Notes: a model not told the origin generated them from the sequence alone. DNA of 64,000 bases from Chloroflexota bacterium (GCA_036732045.1 DAINDD010000002.1:16089-80088), one strand, 5' to 3'. Shown: positions 6,186 to 57,551, counted from the first letter of the stretch. Translations and numbers: made by a program.

Positions 6186-7772
6186 GTGCGATCGAGCATC
6201 GCGAAACTGCGCTCGGCCGGCAGCTATCTCGCCTCGCTGGCGCTGGTGGCGTTGGTCTGCGGGCCGATAGCGGGTCTGCGCGAGGTCTCGGACGTCAGCA
6301 ACTCCTCGATGCTCTTCCTGCTGCCCGTTCTCGCCAGTGCCGTGTTATTCGGGCGCGGGCAGGCGATCTTCGCGGCGGTCGCCTCGTTCTTCGCCTACGA
6401 CTTTCTCTTCGTCGAGCCGCACTACACGTTCACGGTTTCGCACAGCGATGAGTACATGGCACTCGGACTGCTGCTGGTCACGGGCGTGATCACCGGCCAG
6501 CTCGCGGCGCTTCTCAGGCAGCGCGCGCTGGAGGCGGAGGCTCGTGAGAAGGAGGCCGTAGTTCTGTACGACGTTGTGCGGCTAATGGTCGAGCCGGAGC
6601 TTGAGCGCGCCCTGACGTCGGTCGCCGAAAGGCTGCGCCGGGAGCTGGCGCTGGCCGCCGTGCTGATCACGTTCGAGGAGCGGAACACGCCCAGCGTCCA
6701 GGCCGACGTAGGCGACATCGAAGCGATCAGGGTGGCGCAGCGGGCGGCGGGCGTGCCGGAGATGATCCTGGGCTCAGGGCAAGAGCCGACGGGCGCCGAG
6801 CGAGGCAAGCCCGGCCGCTGGATCCGGGTCGTTCCTCTGCACACCAGAGGCCCGGGCCCGCGTCCCGGGGGAGACCGCGCCCTCAGCATTCCGATCGATG
6901 TCGATGGGCGCCGCGCGGGCTCGATCGTACTCGTGCGGGGCGCGGGCGCGTCGCCTCTTTCGCGGGCCAACGACCGGCTGCTGATCGTCGTGGCCAACCA
7001 ACTCGGCCTGGCGATGCAGCGACTGCGGCTGCGGCGCGAGGCAACCGAAGCCGAGATCCTCCGCCGCACCGACGAACTGAGGACGGCGCTGCTCAACGCG
7101 GTCTCGCACGACCTGCGCACGCCTCTCTCATCGATCATCGCCTCGGCCGGCAGCCTCCTTCAGCGGGACGTGCAGTGGACGGAAGCCGAGCGCCGGGAGT
7201 TCACCCGAGCCATCGTCGAGGAGGCCGATCGGCTGAACCGGCTCGTCGGCAATCTGCTTGATCTTTCGCGCATCGAAGCCGGCAGCATCCGGCCGGAGAA
7301 GGGCTGGTACGACCTCGGCGCGCTGGTGGACGAAGTGGCCGGCCGCCTGCGTCGCATCTCTGCGGCGCACTCGCTGGTGCTGGACGTGCCCGAGCATCTG
7401 CCGCCGGCACATTTCGACTACGTGGAGATCGACCAGGTGATCTCTAACCTAATCGAAAACGCAGTCAAGTACACGCCGGAGGGGACGACGATCCGCGTTT
7501 CCGTTCGTGCCGCCGGAGACCAGGTAGAGATCGAGGTCGCAGACAGCGGCCCTGGCATCCCGGAGGATTCCCTTAGCGAGATCTTCCTTCCGTTTTACCG
7601 CGCGACTCCCGGCGCGGCAGCGCGGCCACAGGGGAGCGGCTTGGGACTGGCCGTCGCGCGCGGGCTGGTGGAGGCGCACGGCGGCCGCATTTGGGTAGAG
7701 AACCGTCGCGAGGGCGGCGCGCGCTTCGTCTTCACATTGCCGCTTTCGGACCGGCCGGCGGCGGCGGCATAG
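6186..7772 (+). CDS. sensor histidine kinase, KdpD C-terminal type (DUF4118 membrane domain + GAF + HisKA + HATPase_c)
   Basis: N-terminal 4-TM region is closely similar to the KdpD membrane domain (SSMLFLLPVLASAVLFGRG...DFLFVEPHYTF). H-box SHDLRTPLS. G1/G2 boxes (DSGPGIP, GSGLGLAVA). Confidence 0.85.
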   Translation: MRSSIAKLRSAGSYLASLALVALVCGPIAGLREVSDVSNSSMLFLLPVLASAVLFGRGQAIFAAVASFFAYDFLFVEPHYTFTVSHSDEYMALGLLLVTGVITGQLAALLRQRALEAEAREKEAVVLYDVVRLMVEPELERALTSVAERLRRELALAAVLITFEERNTPSVQADVGDIEAIRVAQRAAGVPEMILGSGQEPTGAERGKPGRWIRVVPLHTRGPGPRPGGDRALSIPIDVDGRRAGSIVLVRGAGASPLSRANDRLLIVVANQLGLAMQRLRLRREATEAEILRRTDELRTALLNAVSHDLRTPLSSIIASAGSLLQRDVQWTEAERREFTRAIVEEADRLNRLVGNLLDLSRIEAGSIRPEKGWYDLGALVDEVAGRLRRISAAHSLVLDVPEHLPPAHFDYVEIDQVISNLIENAVKYTPEGTTIRVSVRAAGDQVEIEVADSGPGIPEDSLSEIFLPFYRATPGAAARPQGSGLGLAVARGLVEAHGGRIWVENRREGGARFVFTLPLSDRPAAAA

Positions 7773-45495: not shown

Positions 45496-46500
45496 TCAGC
45501 GCGGCGCGAGGGCCCGGAAGGCGGCGAGACTTTGCTCTCGCTGACCCTCGGGGTCTCGCGCGGTCGGGATGATGTTGATGATGGGCGTGGTGATGCCATT
45601 CTCGCAGTACGCCTTGATCTTGTCGCGGCAGTCGGCCGGGCTGCCAAAGACGAAGATGTCTTCGACGACCTGCGGCGGCACGAGGCCGACGGCGCCCTGG
45701 CGGTCGCCGGCCTGCCAGGCCTTCATCATTGGCGCCAGGACCTCGCCGCGCCCCAGCCACTCGTGGAAGGCGTAATAGAATGGCGTGGTCAGATAGGCGG
45801 ATACGATGAAGCGGCCGATCATCTGCGCGGCCTGCGCGTCTTCCGTCCAGATGACGAAGATGCGGCAGGCCAGGTCGAACACGGCGGCGTTCCTGCTGGC
45901 GGCCGCCGCTGCTTCCGAAGCGATCCGCGAGATGCGGACGGCGTCGTAAGGGGCGATGTAGTTCGTGATAGCGCCGTCGGCCTGCTCGGCGGCGAGGCGC
46001 AGCATCTTCTCACGGAGCGCGGCGATGTACAGCTTAGGCGGTACGGGGGGCGCGCGGCCCAGGCGAAAGCCCTTGACGTCGTACGGGCCGACCTTCGTCA
46101 CCATCTTCTCGCCGGCCCACGCTTGCTTGAGGAAGGCGATCGTCTCGCGCATGCGGCGCATCGGCTGCTCTAGCGGGACGCCGTTCCACCGCTCGACGAT
46201 GGCGGGCGAGCTAGTGCCGATGCCCAGGCAGAAGCGCCCGGGCGCCAGTTCTTCGAGTGCGGCCGCGGTCTGCGCGAGCAGCGTTGGGGTGCGCGTGTAG
46301 ACGCTGGCTATGGCGCAGCCGAGGCGCGTCTTCGGCGCCCAGGCGGCGAAGGCGGCCAGCGGCGTGAAGGCGTCGTTCGACTCCACCTCAGCCGACCAAG
46401 CGTCAGTGTAGCCCAGATCCTCCGCTTCCTTGAGGATCGGGCCGTGCTCGGACAGCGAGATGCCCTGCAGCGGATAGGTCAGGCCCCAGCGCGCCGTCAT
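45496..46500 (-). CDS. luciferase-like monooxygenase (LLM class, F420/flavin-dependent oxidoreductase)
   Basis: TIM-barrel LLM family pattern (GLGTSSPAIVERWNG...). Confidence 0.8.
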   Translation of the reverse strand: MTARWGLTYPLQGISLSEHGPILKEAEDLGYTDAWSAEVESNDAFTPLAAFAAWAPKTRLGCAIASVYTRTPTLLAQTAAALEELAPGRFCLGIGTSSPAIVERWNGVPLEQPMRRMRETIAFLKQAWAGEKMVTKVGPYDVKGFRLGRAPPVPPKLYIAALREKMLRLAAEQADGAITNYIAPYDAVRISRIASEAAAAASRNAAVFDLACRIFVIWTEDAQAAQMIGRFIVSAYLTTPFYYAFHEWLGRGEVLAPMMKAWQAGDRQGAVGLVPPQVVEDIFVFGSPADCRDKIKAYCENGITTPIINIIPTARDPEGQREQSLAAFRALAPR

Positions 46501-47297
46501 CTGCTGAAGTTCGGCTCGCGCTTCTCGAGGAACGCCTTCACGGCCTCGGCGTGCTCCGGCTGGCGGCGGGCCTCGCGGATCGAGTAGCCCTCACGCGTGA
46601 CGACGCGACGCAGGTCCGGCTCGACGGCGTTCTCGTGGATGATGCGCTTGGCGGCCCAGACTGCAGAGGCCGGGTTTGCGGCGATCTCTTCGGCCAGCGC
46701 CATCGCCTCATCCATCAGCTTTTCGTGCGGGACGATGCGGTCGATCAGGCCGCGCCGCAGCGCCTCGTCCGCCTCGATGATGCGGCCGGTGAGCGCCATG
46801 TAGAGCGCGTTGCTGATTCCCGCTACGAGCGGTAGGTAGCGCGTGCTGCCGCACTCAGGCGTCAGGCCCACCTTCACGAAGCGCACAGAGAACTTCGCCT
46901 TATCGGAGGCGAGGCGGATGTCGCAGGCCAGCGGCATCGTGAGGCCGATGCCGACGGCGTGGCCGTTGATCGCGGCGATGACGGGCTTGCTGCGGGAGAG
47001 CGCTATCGGCACCTCCGGGCTGCCGTCTTCGGCGGTCAGCGGCGACGGCCCGCGGGGCCCGTTGCGAGCGCCCAGCGCTTCGTTGAAGCCGCTGATGTCG
47101 CCGCCGGCGCAGAACGCTCGCCCGGCCCCCGTGACGACGATGACGTGAACGGACGGGTCGGCGTTGAGCGCCTCGAGCGCGGCGAGGAACTCCTGCTCGA
47201 GCTTCCAGTTCCAGGCGTTGAGTTTGTCCGGCCGGTTGAGCGTGAGGAGGGCGATGCGGCCCTTGTTTTCGACGAGCAGCGTTTCGTAGGTAGCCAT
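46497..47297 (-). CDS. enoyl-CoA hydratase/isomerase (crotonase)
   Basis: Crotonase fold; AINGHAVGIGLTMPLACDIR oxyanion region. Confidence 0.85.
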   Translation of the reverse strand: MATYETLLVENKGRIALLTLNRPDKLNAWNWKLEQEFLAALEALNADPSVHVIVVTGAGRAFCAGGDISGFNEALGARNGPRGPSPLTAEDGSPEVPIALSRSKPVIAAINGHAVGIGLTMPLACDIRLASDKAKFSVRFVKVGLTPECGSTRYLPLVAGISNALYMALTGRIIEADEALRRGLIDRIVPHEKLMDEAMALAEEIAANPASAVWAAKRIIHENAVEPDLRRVVTREGYSIREARRQPEHAEAVKAFLEKREPNFSR

Positions 47298-47400
47298 GGT
47301 GCACCTCTTTCTAGCGGCGGTTCGCACTTTATCAGGCGCGAGGGTGAACTGGGAACTGGGAAACGATACTCTGGGCGATCTCTCGCAGGTCCAAGATTGG

Positions 47401-47620
47401 GGCGCCCTTCTGTGGAAGTCTTGAAGTGGAAGGACTTGAGTGCGTTTGACTGCCCGGCTGAGCCCGAGGCCCAGGCTTGAGGCCGGGTCTCTCCAGTAGG
47501 CGTGCTGTGCTATGGGTCAAAAGTGCGGGTGGAAGCGGGGGCTCCGTTCGACGTGGTCGCCAGTCGGGTCGCCGTTCTGGAGGGGCGAGATTCTTCGCGC
47601 GGCTCAGAATGCACGCGTTG
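47401..47620. repeat. dispersed copy (A) of the GIY-YIG/hmgL-associated repeat family
   Basis: Contains a plus-orientation fragment encoding KWKDLSAFDCPAEP (GIY-YIG C-terminus) and the motif GTCGCCGTTCTGGAGGGGCGAGATTCTTCGCGCGGCTCAGAATGCACG, shared with 49016-49068 and 49666-49718. Confidence 0.6.
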
Positions 47621-47689
47621 TCCGTCGCTATGGACACGTTTTGCGCGTCGAGTATCAATGCCCATTCGGCGACTCAGAGGGGGAAAGCG

Positions 47690-47870
47690 GGTTGATTCGG
47701 TTTGGTAAATTTCGTGTTTTGCGATTACGGCGCGAATCTAGAAGTGCAGTGCGTGTCGAGCAGGGCAATCTCTGCGGATTGCCACGAGTGTTTTGAGTGT
47801 TTACAATTTCGTGCTTTTGAGAATTACGTGTAGATTCTGGAATTGTGGTGCGCGTCTAGCTCATGGCCTA
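47690..47870. repeat. AT-rich tandem direct repeat (2-3 units of about 56 bp)
   Basis: AAATTTCGTGTTTTGCGATTACGGCGCGAATCTAGAAGTGCAGTGCGTGTCGAG versus CAATTTCGTGCTTTTGAGAATTACGTGTAGATTCTGGAATTGTGGTGCGCGTCTAG. Confidence 0.6.
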
Positions 47871-47977
47871 AAGATGCCGTCGTACCCCCGACGTCGCGCC
47901 CCAAGATCGCCTGATCCATTCAGATCAAAGGACGCCATTCAAGCTGTTGGAGATCATGGTCGGCGTCTAGCGGCAGT

Positions 47978-48706
47978 TTAGCCAGCGGTGGTCGACGACT
48001 TCGACTGTGCGGGCTCGGCATCAAGCATGTAGCCGATACCCTGCATCGTCTTGATGATGACCGGCGTGCTCGGATTCGGCTCGAGCTTCCGGCGCAGCCG
48101 GGAAACCCAGACGCGCAGGTATTGCACATCGTCGTGATATTCCGGGCCCCACACCTTGCTCAACAGCTCAGCGTTTAGCATCACTTTGCCGGCATTGGCG
48201 GCAAGGTATTGCAGGAGCAGCCACTCGGTCCGGGTGAGCGAGACGGCTTCCCCGCCGCGGGTCATGATGCGGCGGTCGAGGTCGATTTCGACGTTCTGGA
48301 CTTTGATCACACGCTCGATGCCCTGATTGCCGATCGCGCGACGGAGGACAGCGCGGATGCGGGCGCCCATCTCCTCGGGGCTGAACGGTTTGACGATGTA
48401 GTCGTCGGCGCCCATTTCGAGGCCGCGCACCTTGTCCTGGTCGCTGTCCTTGGCGGCGACCAGGATGATCGGCACGTTCGTCTGCTCGCGGATGCGGCGC
48501 ATGACCTCGAGGCCGGTCATCTCAGGCATGATGACGTCGAGGAGGACGACGTCCGGCCGCTGCTCTTCGACGAGCTTGAGCGCCTCTTCGCCGGTGGCGG
48601 CGGTGATGACTCGGAAGCCCTGGCCCGTGAGCTCCAGCTTCATCAGGCGCAGGATGCCTGCTTCGTCGTCTACGGCGAGTACCAAGGGCTCAGGCGTCAC
48701 AAGCAC
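47978..48706 (-). CDS. OmpR-family response regulator (orphan, no adjacent kinase)
   Basis: Receiver (LAVDDEAG, DVIMPEMTG) + trans_reg_C (GIGYML). Confidence 0.9.
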   Translation of the reverse strand: MLVTPEPLVLAVDDEAGILRLMKLELTGQGFRVITAATGEEALKLVEEQRPDVVLLDVIMPEMTGLEVMRRIREQTNVPIILVAAKDSDQDKVRGLEMGADDYIVKPFSPEEMGARIRAVLRRAIGNQGIERVIKVQNVEIDLDRRIMTRGGEAVSLTRTEWLLLQYLAANAGKVMLNAELLSKVWGPEYHDDVQYLRVWVSRLRRKLEPNPSTPVIIKTMQGIGYMLDAEPAQSKSSTTAG

Positions 48707-48860
48707 TCCTTTTCGGCGCCGGGTCAGAGTCGCTCTCTCTGGCGGGCTGTCTCCGTCGATGACAGCACCAAGTAAACACCACGTAATACAGCCGTTATTG
48801 TAACCGAGCAGCCGTTAGCGCGGCCAGTGACTAGGCGATTGTGCCATGTTGAGGCTACGA

Positions 48861-49160
48861 ACGCGTCGCGGTGCGCTTGACGCGGCCTTCCAGCGGGCGA
48901 TCTGTCATGCTGAGGCGACCGCAGGCCAGTCCGAAGTTGCGAACCTGGAGAGACGGTATTCCGGATCAAACGCGGGTCGGCGGCGGGCATCCGTTTCGAT
49001 GTGATCGCCAGCCGGGTCGTCGTTCCGCAGGGCGAGATTCTTCGCTGCGGCTCAGAAGGACACGCATGGGCGGCTACAGACGCGTCGCGGTGCGCTTGAC
49101 GCGGCCTTCCAGCGGGCGATCTGTCATGTTGAGGCGGTCGCAGGCCAACCCGAAGCATCT
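48861..49160. repeat. two tandem ~220-bp units, each beginning with a ~35-bp duplicate of the hmgL 3' end
   Basis: CGCGTCGCGGTGCGCTTGACGCGGCCTTCCAGCGGGCGATCTGTCATGCTGAGGCGACCGCAGGCCAGTCCGAAG at 48861 and again at 49081. The GCGCTTGACGCGGCCTTCCAGCGGGCG part is identical to hmgL codons at 49733-49766. Unit 1 also carries a GIY-YIG 3'-end fragment and the GAGATTCTTCGCTGCGG hairpin motif. Confidence 0.7.
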
Positions 49161-49163
49161 CGC

Positions 49164-49486
49164 CTACCTGGAAAGACGGTACTCCGGGTCAAACGCGGGC
49201 TCGGTGGGGCAGTCGAACGCACTCAGATCTTTCCACTTGGGATTCTGCGCGGCCACGAGCGCGATCTCCGCCGGACCCAGCCCTTGATCTGCTTCTCCCG
49301 CTCGATCGCGGCAAGGGCGTCGCCGCCCACTTCGAAGTACACGAGGCGAGTCATCTTGTACCGGCTGGTAAATCCCTTCGTGGCTCCGCTCTTGTGTTCC
49401 GTGACGCGGCGTATGAGGTTGTTGGTCACGCCAACATAGAGCGTTCCCGAGTTGTTGGTCATGATGTAGACATAGTAGTCGCGCAC
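49164..49486 (-). pseudogene. GIY-YIG nuclease-family small protein (COG2827 type) with a frameshift
   Basis: N-terminus YYVYIMTNNSGTLYVGVTNNLIRRVTEHK...IEREKQIKGW is in one frame (ORF 49223-49663). The expected C-terminus IALVAAQNPKWKDLSAFDCPTEPAFDPEYRLSR is in another (ORF 49164-49535). Confidence 0.5.
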
Positions 49487-49536
49487 GCCCGGACTGTACG
49501 CAGTGTGGCCGGTTCCCGGAAGTGGCAAATGGCAAT

Positions 49537-49732
49537 GCGACGACATGTCATGCTGAGGCTGCCGCAGGCCAGTCCGAAGCATCTCGCCCAACCGCGAAGA
49601 CGACGACGCTCGCTGGTGAAAGACGCGGCGTTGGGGGACGGGCATCTTTGGCGTTGCCCCCAATTCGGGTCGTCGTTCTGCAGGGCGAGATTCTTCGCTG
49701 CGGTTCAGAATGACACGGGGCGCGGCGCGGTG
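49537..49732. repeat. third unit of the repeat family, between GIY-YIG and hmgL
   Basis: TGTCATGCTGAGGCTGCCGCAGGCCAGTCCGAAGCATCTCGCC ... GTCGTCGTTCTGCAGGGCGAGATTCTTCGCTGCGGTTCAGAATGACACG, matching the units at 48901 and 49121. Confidence 0.6.
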
Positions 49733-50613
49733 CGCTTGACGCGGCCTTCCAGCGGGCGGCCGATGATGTCCTCCGCAAGCCAGGCGGCATCCAGGAGCGC
49801 CATCTCGTCCACACCGGTGGCGATCCCCATACGGTGCAGCATCGACACCATGTCCTCCGTCGCAACGTTACCGGAGGCGCCCGGTGCGTACGGGCAGCCG
49901 CCAAGGCCGCCGATCGAGCCGTCAAACTGCGCCGCGCCGGCTTGCATCGCGGTGACGACGTTGGCCAGCGCCATCCCGCGCGTGTCATGGAAGTGCAGTC
50001 GTATCTCGACCGCCGGCATCTGCTCAGCGAGGCGCGTGACAAGCTCGAACACCTGGCGCGGGTTGCCGACGCCGATCGTATCGCCCAGCGCGATGGCGCT
50101 GGCGCCGCCGTCCCGCAGCTCACGGGCGATCTCCAGCACGCGCTCCGGGGCGACCTCGCCCTCGTACGGGCAGCCGAAGGCCGTCGAGATGTAACCGCTC
50201 CAAGGGACCCCTGCTTCGGTCGCCAGCGCGGCGACGTTGCGGATCGCCTCCAGCGACTCGGCGACGCTGCGGTTGACGTTGGCGCGGTTGTGCGCTTCGC
50301 TGGCGGAGACGACGACGGCGATCTCGTCGACGCGCGCCTCGATGGCGTTCCGCGCGCCGGTCTCGTTTGGGACAAGGCCGATGTAGGTCACGCCGGGCCG
50401 GCGCTCGATCGCGGCCATCACCTCGGAGGCGTTGGTCATCTGGGGGATCGCCTTCGCGCTCACAAAAGACGCTGCTTCAATGCGCGCGATGTCGGTCCGC
50501 GAGAGCGCATCGATCAGCCGCACTTTGTCTTCGAGCGAGATGATGCGCGACTCGTTCTGCAGTCCGTCGCGCGGGCCGACTTCGGTGATGGTGACGTGTG
50601 GCGGCCACTTCAC
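49705..50613 (-). CDS. hydroxymethylglutaryl-CoA lyase
   Basis: TIM-barrel HMGL family (VTITEVGPRDGLQNE...). Confidence 0.9.
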   Translation of the reverse strand: MKWPPHVTITEVGPRDGLQNESRIISLEDKVRLIDALSRTDIARIEAASFVSAKAIPQMTNASEVMAAIERRPGVTYIGLVPNETGARNAIEARVDEIAVVVSASEAHNRANVNRSVAESLEAIRNVAALATEAGVPWSGYISTAFGCPYEGEVAPERVLEIARELRDGGASAIALGDTIGVGNPRQVFELVTRLAEQMPAVEIRLHFHDTRGMALANVVTAMQAGAAQFDGSIGGLGGCPYAPGASGNVATEDMVSMLHRMGIATGVDEMALLDAAWLAEDIIGRPLEGRVKRTAPRPVSF

Positions 50614-56861: not shown

Positions 56862-57012
56862 GGTGGTTCCTCGTGCAACTTGGGTGGTTGGTTGTGCAAG
56901 ACCCATTATAAGGTGCGCCGTGGACAACCCGCCCAGAGCCCGCCGAAGGCGGAGCGAAGGGCCTGTCCACGTAGACTGTTTGCCGCAACGAAACGGAACC
57001 GGGACTCTGCAG

Positions 57013-57315
57013 ATGAGAACGACCCAGCACTACGTCTACATCGCCACTAACCACTCAGGCACGCTCTACACAGGAATGACAAGCGACCTTGAGCACCGTC
57101 TCGCGCAACACCGCGCGGGATTGTCACATTTCACGGCAAAGTACCGGATTGGGCGGCTGCTGTACTTCGAGGTAGCAGCTGATCGATACACGGCTCTGGA
57201 ACGCGAGTGGGCGATCAAGCGTTGGAATCGGGCCAAGAAGCTCGCGCTTGTCCGAAGCGTCAATCCGAGGCTGCGAGACTTGAGCCGCGATCTTGGATAT
57301 GCCCTTGGTCCGTGA
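57013..57315 (+). CDS. GIY-YIG nuclease-family small protein (COG2827 type), intact
   Basis: HYVYIATNHSGTLYTGMTSDLEHRLAQH...REWAIKRWNRAKKLALV...NPRLRDL. Paralog of the frameshifted copy at 49164-49486. Confidence 0.8.
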   Translation: MRTTQHYVYIATNHSGTLYTGMTSDLEHRLAQHRAGLSHFTAKYRIGRLLYFEVAADRYTALEREWAIKRWNRAKKLALVRSVNPRLRDLSRDLGYALGP

Positions 57316-57551
57316 GACAGGACGGCTGACGAGACGCCTCCTATGGTTCCTGGCGTTGCTACGTCGTGGCCTGCCCGATGTGATGGCAGAGTCCCGCGAT
57401 GAATGACTCTTGGGCAACGAGTTCTGGGACAGGCCCTTCGTTCCGCCTCGCGGCGGACTCAGGGCGGGTAGCCGACCGCGTCGAGTCATCCGGACAGGTC
57501 CTTGGCTATGCTCGAGAACGACAGATGGCCGCCGTGTATCATTGATCCTGC

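Follow-up and report, generated by a model that had tools for sequence, protein, structure and literature searches.

A putative Ssn/SRM locus downstream of hmgL in a Chloroflexota bacterium, with hairpin repeats, copied gene ends, and a frameshifted nuclease gene

In a 64,000-nucleotide (nt) stretch of a Chloroflexota metagenome-assembled genome (GCA_036732045.1, DAINDD010000002.1:16089-80088; hereafter the window), the gene for HMG-CoA lyase (hmgL) is followed by an array of hairpin repeats, displaced copies of the hmgL 3' end, and a frameshifted gene for a GIY-YIG nuclease. The nuclease resembles Ssn proteins, which are single-domain GIY-YIG nucleases of ~94 amino acids (aa) that bind an oriented hairpin, called NTS in Neisseria and SRM elsewhere, only as single-stranded DNA (ssDNA) (Chenal et al., Nat Commun 2025; PMC11893778). 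We consider it likely that the region is an Ssn/SRM locus, meaning an ssn gene accompanied by a cluster of oriented hairpins, in which whole units turn over and copies of the hmgL end lie between units. Its features are listed below in window coordinates, with scores in bits from R1, a covariance model of the hairpin motif. All three of hmgL, the GIY-YIG gene, and the response regulator are read on the minus strand.

49705..50613, minus: hmgL, HMG-CoA lyase, 302 aa (Pfam PF00682, E 1e-52)
49716..49758, minus: T0, the copy of the hmgL 3' end that lies within the gene and holds the 33-nt exact core at 49726-49758
49119..49715, minus: composite element E, 597 bp, missing at the empty site L033; it contains, in order, a left SRM, a long hairpin, a second SRM, a 5' leader, the ssn pseudogene, and a right SRM
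49682..49717, minus: IR-L, the SRM hairpin motif TGTCATTCTGAACCGCAGCGAAGAATCTCGCCC that opens element E (43.2 bits, E 4e-10)
49544..49590, plus: SRM hairpin motif with an expanded inner loop (39.9 bits)
49164..49486, minus: pseudogene of ssn, an Ssn-family GIY-YIG gene, starting with GTG at 49486 (PF01541, E 9e-16)
49120..49166, plus: SRM hairpin motif at the right end of element E (34.4 bits), a direct repeat of 49544-49590
49063..49118, minus: T2, displaced copy of the hmgL 3' end, with a native-type stop TAG plus 11 nt
48900..49062, minus: X2, gene-less derivative of 163 bp, its left SRM matched at 49029-49064 (minus; 37.3 bits)
48855..48899, minus: T1, copy of the hmgL 3' end with the native stop TAG; the same junction is present in L008, L017, and L031
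48838..48854, minus: 17-nt remnant CCTCAACATGGCACAAT of another right SRM end, recognized by eye against the right end of element E (CCTCAACATGACAGAT) and the empty site L033
47978..48700, minus: response regulator of the OmpR type, 240 aa when read from the second GTG (PF00072, PF00486)
47424..47615, plus: separate rearranged remnant in the spacer between the regulator and an enoyl-CoA hydratase gene, with the last 18 ssn codons (47424-47480), ~100 nt, and then an SRM
47582-47615, modelled strand minus: SRM of the separate remnant (29.4 bits)
57014-57315, plus: second, intact Ssn-family gene, 100 aa, within 56916..57480 between leuD and pyrD

Several lines of evidence tie the GIY-YIG gene to the Ssn family. 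PF01541 is the sole Pfam domain of its product. An intact ortholog, P0003, matched a 94-aa open reading frame on the chromosome of N. gonorrhoeae (tblastn E 6e-16 in a 7.3-Gb search), under the homology threshold of tblastn E < 1e-10 used for the family, which is defined as cd10448 (PMC11893778), and nine canonical NTS repeats lie around that frame within 2.3 kb. Aligned pairwise, P0003 and the N. gonorrhoeae SsnA ortholog are 43% identical over their full length (E 1e-25). Furthermore, the catalytic residues Y6, Y17, and E64 of SsnA all align (VYI, LYVG, and REKQ), and in the window copy they lie upstream of the frameshift. We therefore read the window protein as an Ssn-family member and, by homology, a putative hairpin-specific ssDNA nuclease. 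The family is large (4,761 proteins at E <= 1e-3), and tails encoded by the motif, such as DPSLRSG, DSSLRSE, and ETLRSAQGD, are common among its proteins. A protein scan of viral contigs returned no relatives of the ssn product, and PADLOC gave no defence-system match.

The initial annotation had called the gene frameshifted, and this is borne out by a 4-nt deletion at ~49267/49268 relative to intact relatives, which changes the frame after ..EKQIKGWVRR and is seen in four of four independent assemblies of the window strain. When the locus was searched with tblastn, ssn was recovered as two pieces, each 96-97% identical to a reconstruction of 107 aa; intact relatives, P0001-P0003 among them, have 94-105 aa. 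Across orthologous loci, the ratio of nonsynonymous to synonymous substitution rates (dN/dS) was 0.04-0.13 for the nuclease core and 0.08-0.18 for the neighboring regulator, with dS of 0.5-1.0 for the core, somewhat above the 0.26-0.6 of the regulator. These values show that the core evolves under purifying selection. The related locus L015 is without the window's deletion and has zero synonymous differences from it over the first 72 codons. Therefore, and because the core is under purifying selection, the frameshift is recent. Furthermore, the locus is occupied even where ssn identity has fallen to 68%, a sign of deep residence. With a recent frameshift, a dN/dS like that of the regulator, and such long residence, the term "decaying" that had been applied to the region is too strong.

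The same evidence bears on whether the gene is a classical free-standing homing endonuclease of the I-TevI/Seg type, which would have cut a target in hmgL, spread by double-strand-break repair, and now be decaying. Such a history would account for the GIY-YIG domain, for presence/absence polymorphism, and for the frameshift or nonsense alleles that arose independently in L008, L015, L031, and the window; in addition, there is a weak match to TIGR01453 (group I intron endonuclease, E 3.6e-4). Yet the score of that match is 20.6 against a cutoff of 56, and the protein, at only ~100 aa, has no extra DNA-binding domain. There is no intron or intein, the core has been under long-term purifying selection at a fixed locus, and flanking duplications of 45 nt are not a product of homing. 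Finally, characterized relatives leave double-stranded DNA uncut (PMC11893778). We regard homing as very unlikely.

The second component of the locus is the hairpin motif. It spans ~35 nt and consists of an unpaired (C/T)GTCA tag, a 5-bp stem, a tandem G·A, a GC-closed loop, and then TC; the loop is a G-C/C-G pair closing GNA or CGCA, or a 17-nt expansion. Among 29 aligned distinct copies from 14 loci, G4, T5, and C6 of the tag and C29 after the stem were invariant in all 29. This agrees with mutagenesis of the published system, in which cutting needs the bases just 5' of the palindrome (the GTC side) and binding needs the C right after it (PMC11893778). The stem covaries (ATTCT/AGAAT, ATGCT/AGCAT, ACTCT/AGAGT, ACCCT/AGGGT, and GTCCT/AGGAT), with changes on both sides at stem position 2 (UA/CG), at position 3 (UA/CG/GC), and at the inner pair (GC/AU, that is, G-C/A-T). 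Four copies that were recognized by their flanks alone carry one stem mismatch.

That the motif recurs at least three times had been proposed from the window sequence, and the 16-mer GGGCGAGATTCTTCGC is indeed found exactly at 47583, 49030, and 49683. Model R1 detected five significant copies in the window, all in the region downstream of hmgL, and three of them (49682-49717, 49544-49590, and 49120-49166) surround ssn. At four distant loci, selected by protein identity alone, 27 of 32 R1 matches fell within ±800 bp of the gene, or 10.6% of the sequence, a ~46-fold enrichment. The association of motif and ssn is general. In the published survey, 71% of ssn homolog genes have an SRM nearby (PMC11893778). 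Motif copies or doublets with no nearby gene also occur, in L011, L012, and L014.

An alternative is that the motifs are structured RNA elements of the hmgL operon, whether terminators, mRNA stabilizers, or cis-regulatory RNA, and that their link to the GIY-YIG gene is incidental. The position of hairpins at gene 3' ends, where they overlap stop codons, would suit such a role, as would stem variants that are compatible with G-U pairing. But the motifs lie in both orientations and are enriched near ssn genes; Rfam had nothing matching 46500-50500 at E <= 1, a terminator scan of the region found none, and SsnA binds ssDNA, not RNA (PMC11893778). An RNA function independent of the nuclease is accordingly highly improbable. 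Among specific RNA candidates, a hammerhead or other ribozyme for CUGA...GAA was rejected by eye, as the core CUGANGA is unmet, and the Pedo-repair RNA, considered for a link to small UvrC-like genes, was set aside as unrelated since its paper describes a radC/mcrC 5'-UTR (untranslated region) motif in Pedobacter. A peptide search with the translated hairpin element produced no candidates.

Three observations on the motif stand apart from the array. Short tandem arrays of just the 3' half-motif, CTCAGAATGACA plus ~10 nt with a period of 21-24 nt, lie downstream of distant ssn genes (L018, 10310-10640; L021, 10459-10538; L026, 10359-10421), and their copy number differs between near-identical contigs (three in L026, two in L027). 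In L014, a Chloroflexia metagenome-assembled genome, motif doublets at 7150-7450 and 1500-1650 are centered in longer perfect palindromes, the arms of which reach 12 to ~60 nt past the TGTCA tags. This points to a larger repeat unit in that genome or, alternatively, to inverted copying of the flanks. Finally, a segment of the hmgL-end copy at 49726-49745 contains CGTCAAGCGCACCGCGCC, with a CGTCA tag, a small GCGC/GCGC hairpin, and then C. It might be a weak pseudo-site for the nuclease or, equally, chance in GC-rich DNA.

Gene and motifs are embedded in a series of repeats that includes part of hmgL itself. Along the minus strand, hmgL and T0 are followed by element E, T2, X2, T1, the 17-nt remnant, the native spacer, and the response regulator, and native downstream sequence begins directly after the remnant. 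As had been claimed, the end of hmgL is repeated: the 27-mer GCGCTTGACGCGGCCTTCCAGCGGGCG from its 3' end has three exact copies (at 48873, 49092, and 49732; 0 in 100 shuffles), and the exact core common to all three copies of the end is 33 nt (48867-48899, 49086-49118, and 49726-49758). Copies of an 84-nt repeat family are spaced 219 and 640 nt apart, and those of a 52-nt motif, longer than the 16-mer GGGCGAGATTCTTCGC, share 94% identity between 49013 and 49666. A ~45-62-nt element has copies at 48898, 49117, and 49541, which places the GIY-YIG gene between direct repeats at the latter two positions, again as proposed. In addition, the motif at 49544-49590 can pair with IR-L in a ~175-nt hairpin (49545-49718; -78 kcal/mol, z -3.3).

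X2 is made of a left SRM, ~50 nt, the last ~11 ssn codons, and a degenerate right SRM. It derives by internal deletion from an E-like element, having been spawned by an SRM-ssn-SRM element, and its shape resembles a MITE (miniature inverted-repeat element) or a REPIN (pair of inverted REP palindromes). Together, X2 and one T copy make up a unit of 219 bp. That spacing is the distance between paired right-end motifs, from 49120 to 48901, the copy at 48901 being degenerate and undetected by R1; successive left-end motifs on the hmgL-sense strand, at 49717 and 49064, are 653 nt apart. The initial annotation had described a tandem array of ~220-bp units, and a 219-bp unit is indeed repeated, but Tandem Repeats Finder reports no such period, because just about two diverged units exist. 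It had likewise described fragments of the GIY-YIG C terminus in both orientations. The fragment at 47424-47466 (plus) shows 84% complementarity to 49196-49238, and a tblastn match in the remnant that holds it reached 93% over 14 aa, whereas the one at 48944 (minus) has only the last ~11 codons (PAFDPEYRLSR) and is without KWKDLSAF.

The number of units varies among close relatives. The window shares the two-unit form with L001 (a metagenome-assembled genome from NCBI), L004, and L005, in which array and frameshift are unchanged. The one-unit form, in L002 and L003, has exactly one 219-bp unit fewer, with endpoints inside a 48-nt identical stretch. Since every assembly is a short-read metagenome, the array could in principle be an artefact of repeat expansion or collapse; contigs L004 and L006 begin inside T copies, and the two forms differ by exactly one unit. 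However, the identical two-unit form occurs in at least four assemblies from different samples, the 48-nt identity between units is shorter than the final k of 119-141, and diverged orthologous arrays with the same junctions are present in L008, L010, L017, and L031. An assembly origin is exceedingly unlikely, the least probable of the alternatives.

Comparison with the hmgL downstream region of relatives, which had been suggested as a check, revealed both an empty site and orthologous arrays. At the empty site (L033, hmgL 86% identical), the hmgL stop is followed by 119 bp and the regulator, with a single T; the element is therefore an insertion relative to that site. Orthologous arrays with the same element/T junction occur in related organisms (L008/L009, L010, L015, L017, and L031), and the one in L010 has three hairpin units and three T copies. 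In L031 hmgL retains its native stop, 8 nt ahead of the motif, and a nonsense codon interrupts the nuclease gene. Outside the hmgL locus, L035 carries the same ssn lineage (92% identity) and the same 5' leader between cysS and a gene for a cupredoxin, directly after a stop codon and with no host-gene duplication. These comparisons support in part the proposal that a selfish GIY-YIG element had inserted, excised, or recombined here: the empty site and the whole-unit changes between strains are as expected, but the protein is not a generic selfish homing endonuclease; it belongs to the Ssn family, which may be either selfish or domesticated.

A direct repeat of 45-48 nt of hmgL sequence flanks the array in the window and in L008, L017, and L031. 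The more distant locus L037 has no hmgL duplication, and the duplication is confined to the window's sub-clade. A long target duplication is not supported as a general hallmark of the element, as other sites are without one; spacer S of L007, considered as an independent target duplication, proved to be a diverged homolog of T2' in L031. The first duplication of the ~45-48-nt hmgL end is best read as a single old event. Candidates for its origin are staggered breaks with fill-in and microhomology-mediated template switching. Microhomology, ATCG(G)CC / GAT|CGCC, is present at the start of T, at the end of the element, and at the start of native downstream sequence.

The proposed Ssn/SRM locus would work as follows. 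When the DNA became single-stranded, through replication, repair, or cruciform extrusion, the motif would fold into a hairpin in which a 5-bp stem leads to tandem sheared G·A pairs and a tri- or tetraloop closed by GC. An Ssn protein, whether from the window copy, an intact relative, or the second gene at 57014, would then bind by means of the invariant GTC tag together with the C that follows the stem, and would cut a few nt 5' of the tag, where the element/T junctions sit. The published cut site is a few nt upstream of the hairpin (PMC11893778), and we infer that the element-flank junctions, 0-3 nt outside the TGTC tags, mark the position of Ssn cutting. Repair of such breaks among nearby repeats could gain or lose whole units, and rare repair events could copy the element to a new site right after a stop codon.

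Alternatively, Ssn could be a bystander. Under this interpretation, units and hmgL copies arise and vary by replication slippage or unequal homologous recombination, and the nuclease acts elsewhere, for example in restricting incoming ssDNA as in Neisseria. The endpoints of the deletion in L002 and L003 fall within identical sequence, the T copies look homogenized within a genome, and microhomology is present at the start of T, the element end, and the native restart. The gene is vertically inherited under purifying selection, and the sole demonstrated biological role of Ssn is the modulation of transformation (PMC11893778). What a bystander leaves unexplained is the arrival of the element at the hmgL and cysS sites and the coincidence of junctions with the expected cut position. 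We see it as a real but lesser possibility, one that is compatible with the Ssn/SRM locus proposed here rather than exclusive of it.

A number of observations weigh against an active Ssn/SRM locus. The window copy of ssn has no intact open reading frame; the frameshift puts the conserved C-terminal segment RxKKIALxxxxNPxWxDL out of frame, so that NPxWxDL is lost. Ssn nucleases are not known to take part in transposition or in the gain and loss of units. The 45-48-nt duplication is not visible at the cysS site or in L037 and is not a signature of mechanism. Nor is the element obviously multi-copy: exact-pattern scans gave four matches in genome contigs, one of them by chance in Aurantimicrobium, and three in metagenome contigs, all at one orthologous locus, both scans being too specific to gauge dispersal. 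Part of the motif set was chosen with a pairing filter, which makes the percentage of paired positions partly circular, and in nearest-neighbor folding single small hairpins did no better than shuffles; the structure therefore rests on covariation. Finally, the published SRM pattern, HGTCWYN(0-2)YYVSBRHN(0-5)WNVSBRGN(0-2)RNCYNB, has 0 matches to the copies in the window or in L007-L026, because TGAG/CGAA (G·A) replaces two base pairs. The same pattern does match canonical NTS and 9 sites around the gonococcal gene. We take the window motif to be a probable SRM variant with a tandem G·A that the published pattern cannot see.

A stronger version of the proposal holds that SRM-ssn-SRM units are truly mobile in the manner of REPIN/RAYT systems, driven by a GIY-YIG ssDNA nuclease, and that the tandem-G·A hairpin is an unrecognized, widespread SRM class in Chloroflexota and Planctomycetota-type metagenome-assembled genomes. 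We offer this tentatively, as somewhat less probable than not. To our knowledge, there is no covalent strand-transfer chemistry for a GIY-YIG nuclease, so any mobility would need host repair or ligation. Were the units mobile, the locus would be the first natural-history evidence of it, consisting of filled and empty sites, a gene-less derivative with ssn codons, two chromosomal sites, and unit polymorphism. More generally, the Ssn family has so far been characterized only in Neisseria and Wolbachia, and the locus would extend it to Chloroflexota. The empty site, the second locus, the deletion derivative, and the unit polymorphism are comparative evidence that a gene-plus-repeat unit can insert, give rise to copies without the gene, and remodel the 3' end of hmgL, a metabolic gene. 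This touches on the question of whether SRM repeats are mobile or domesticated, and the locus offers new enzyme/site pairs for ssDNA tools.

The system to which the locus appears to belong was described in 2025, and the window provides a putative new example with a hairpin variant and comparative evidence on mobility. As in the published system (PMC11893778), the gene for a ~95-105-aa, single-domain GIY-YIG protein with full-length homology to Neisseria SsnA lies between oriented hairpin repeats. Each repeat has a (C/T)GTCA tag and a stem that opens with AT, the C behind the stem being conserved, and the repeats cluster at the gene and also occur away from it. The authors of that study remarked on the insertion-sequence-like NTS-ssnA-NTS layout and on the analogy with REP/RAYT. 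The window differs in that tandem G·A mismatches replace two base pairs of the stem, the core being GC(GNA/CGCA)GC, and in that the array has duplicated host-gene 3' ends and a gene-less derivative that keeps ssn codons. Its host is a Dehalococcoidia-labelled Chloroflexota metagenome-assembled genome, and its gene is frameshifted.

Similar comparisons can be made with other repeat families. Palindromes tagged with CGTC or TGTC, for which no dedicated enzyme was found, were described by Di Nocera et al. 2013 (PMC3733652). Like members of this superfamily (Neisseria dRS3, Rickettsia RPE-4/6), the window repeats have an unpaired CGTC/TGTC tag at one end, a stem of 8-9 positions opening with A-T pairs, and a loop and tail that are both short; they are mostly inverted dimers and occasionally insert into gene ends. 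Unlike them, they have a GIY-YIG gene partner, stems broken by G·A, and a low copy number in 64 kb. With REP/REPIN-RAYT systems (REP, repetitive extragenic palindrome; RAYT, the tyrosine transposase associated with it) and BIME arrays, which are mosaics of REPs, the locus shares tagged hairpins in inverted doublets and alternating-orientation arrays at gene 3' ends, as well as a single, vertically inherited nuclease gene under purifying selection and flanked by its own repeats. But in place of an HUH/Y1 (IS200/IS605-like) transposase the element encodes a hydrolytic GIY-YIG nuclease, the gene for which is the only one inside it. With insertion sequences (IS) and MITEs it shares terminal inverted repeats, one gene, an internally deleted gene-less form (X2), filled and empty sites in related genomes, and presence at two loci. 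It departs from IS in having no known transposase fold, ends that are often direct as well as inverted, and a 45-48-nt flanking direct repeat that is seen at the hmgL locus only. A literature search for ties between GIY-YIG genes and MITE, REPIN, or RAYT repeats found nothing relevant.

The window contains a second ssn locus, the intact gene between leuD and pyrD. Its protein is 52% identical to the first and 42% identical to N. gonorrhoeae SsnA (E 1e-21), and the gene lies between 53-nt inverted repeats (56916-56968 and 57427-57480). These repeats carry a different G·A-bulged hairpin, GCCCT-GA-...-GA-AGGGC inside GTGGACA/TGTCCAC (fold z -3.8), which model R1 does not detect.

The insertion has also altered hmgL. 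Its last codons and stop (..PRPVSF*) come from the junction and the first hairpin motif; in relatives the native end is ..RTAPRL*/RS*, at 298-299 aa. Many hmgL homologs of the clade (P0121-P0240; 72-100% identical, 301-318 aa) end in tails that look as if encoded by the motif, namely ..PVSF, ..RPSS, ..HVS, ..YVP, and ..EVS, and hairpin motifs may thus overlap the hmgL stop repeatedly across lineages.

The response regulator had been described as embedded in the array. Instead, it sits between the array and the separate remnant (47424-47614) and is present in every orthologous locus, including the empty site. It is a conserved native neighbor, a bystander outside the array. At L037 (3584-3913), the regulator is cut to its C-terminal DNA-binding domain (109 aa, Trans_reg_C only). 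The spacer between regulator and enoyl-CoA hydratase gene measures 680 bp in the window and 215 bp and 107 bp in L008 and L010, respectively. Downstream of the regulator, a stretch that is AT-richer than its surroundings (47690-47880; 47% GC vs 65% for the window) is missing from those shorter spacers. It holds a ~55-nt imperfect direct repeat (~47708-47761 / 47805-47860; score 38, vs <=21 in shuffles) and the region's sole sigma-70-like site, at 47779-47807 (plus).

Finally, an entry filed as a plasmid in PLSDB (L034; NZ_CP119140.1, p2022NG-0076_1) is 2.17 Mb long, is almost unannotated, and includes the ssnA locus of N. gonorrhoeae, which is chromosomal; the entry is apparently a misfiled chromosome.

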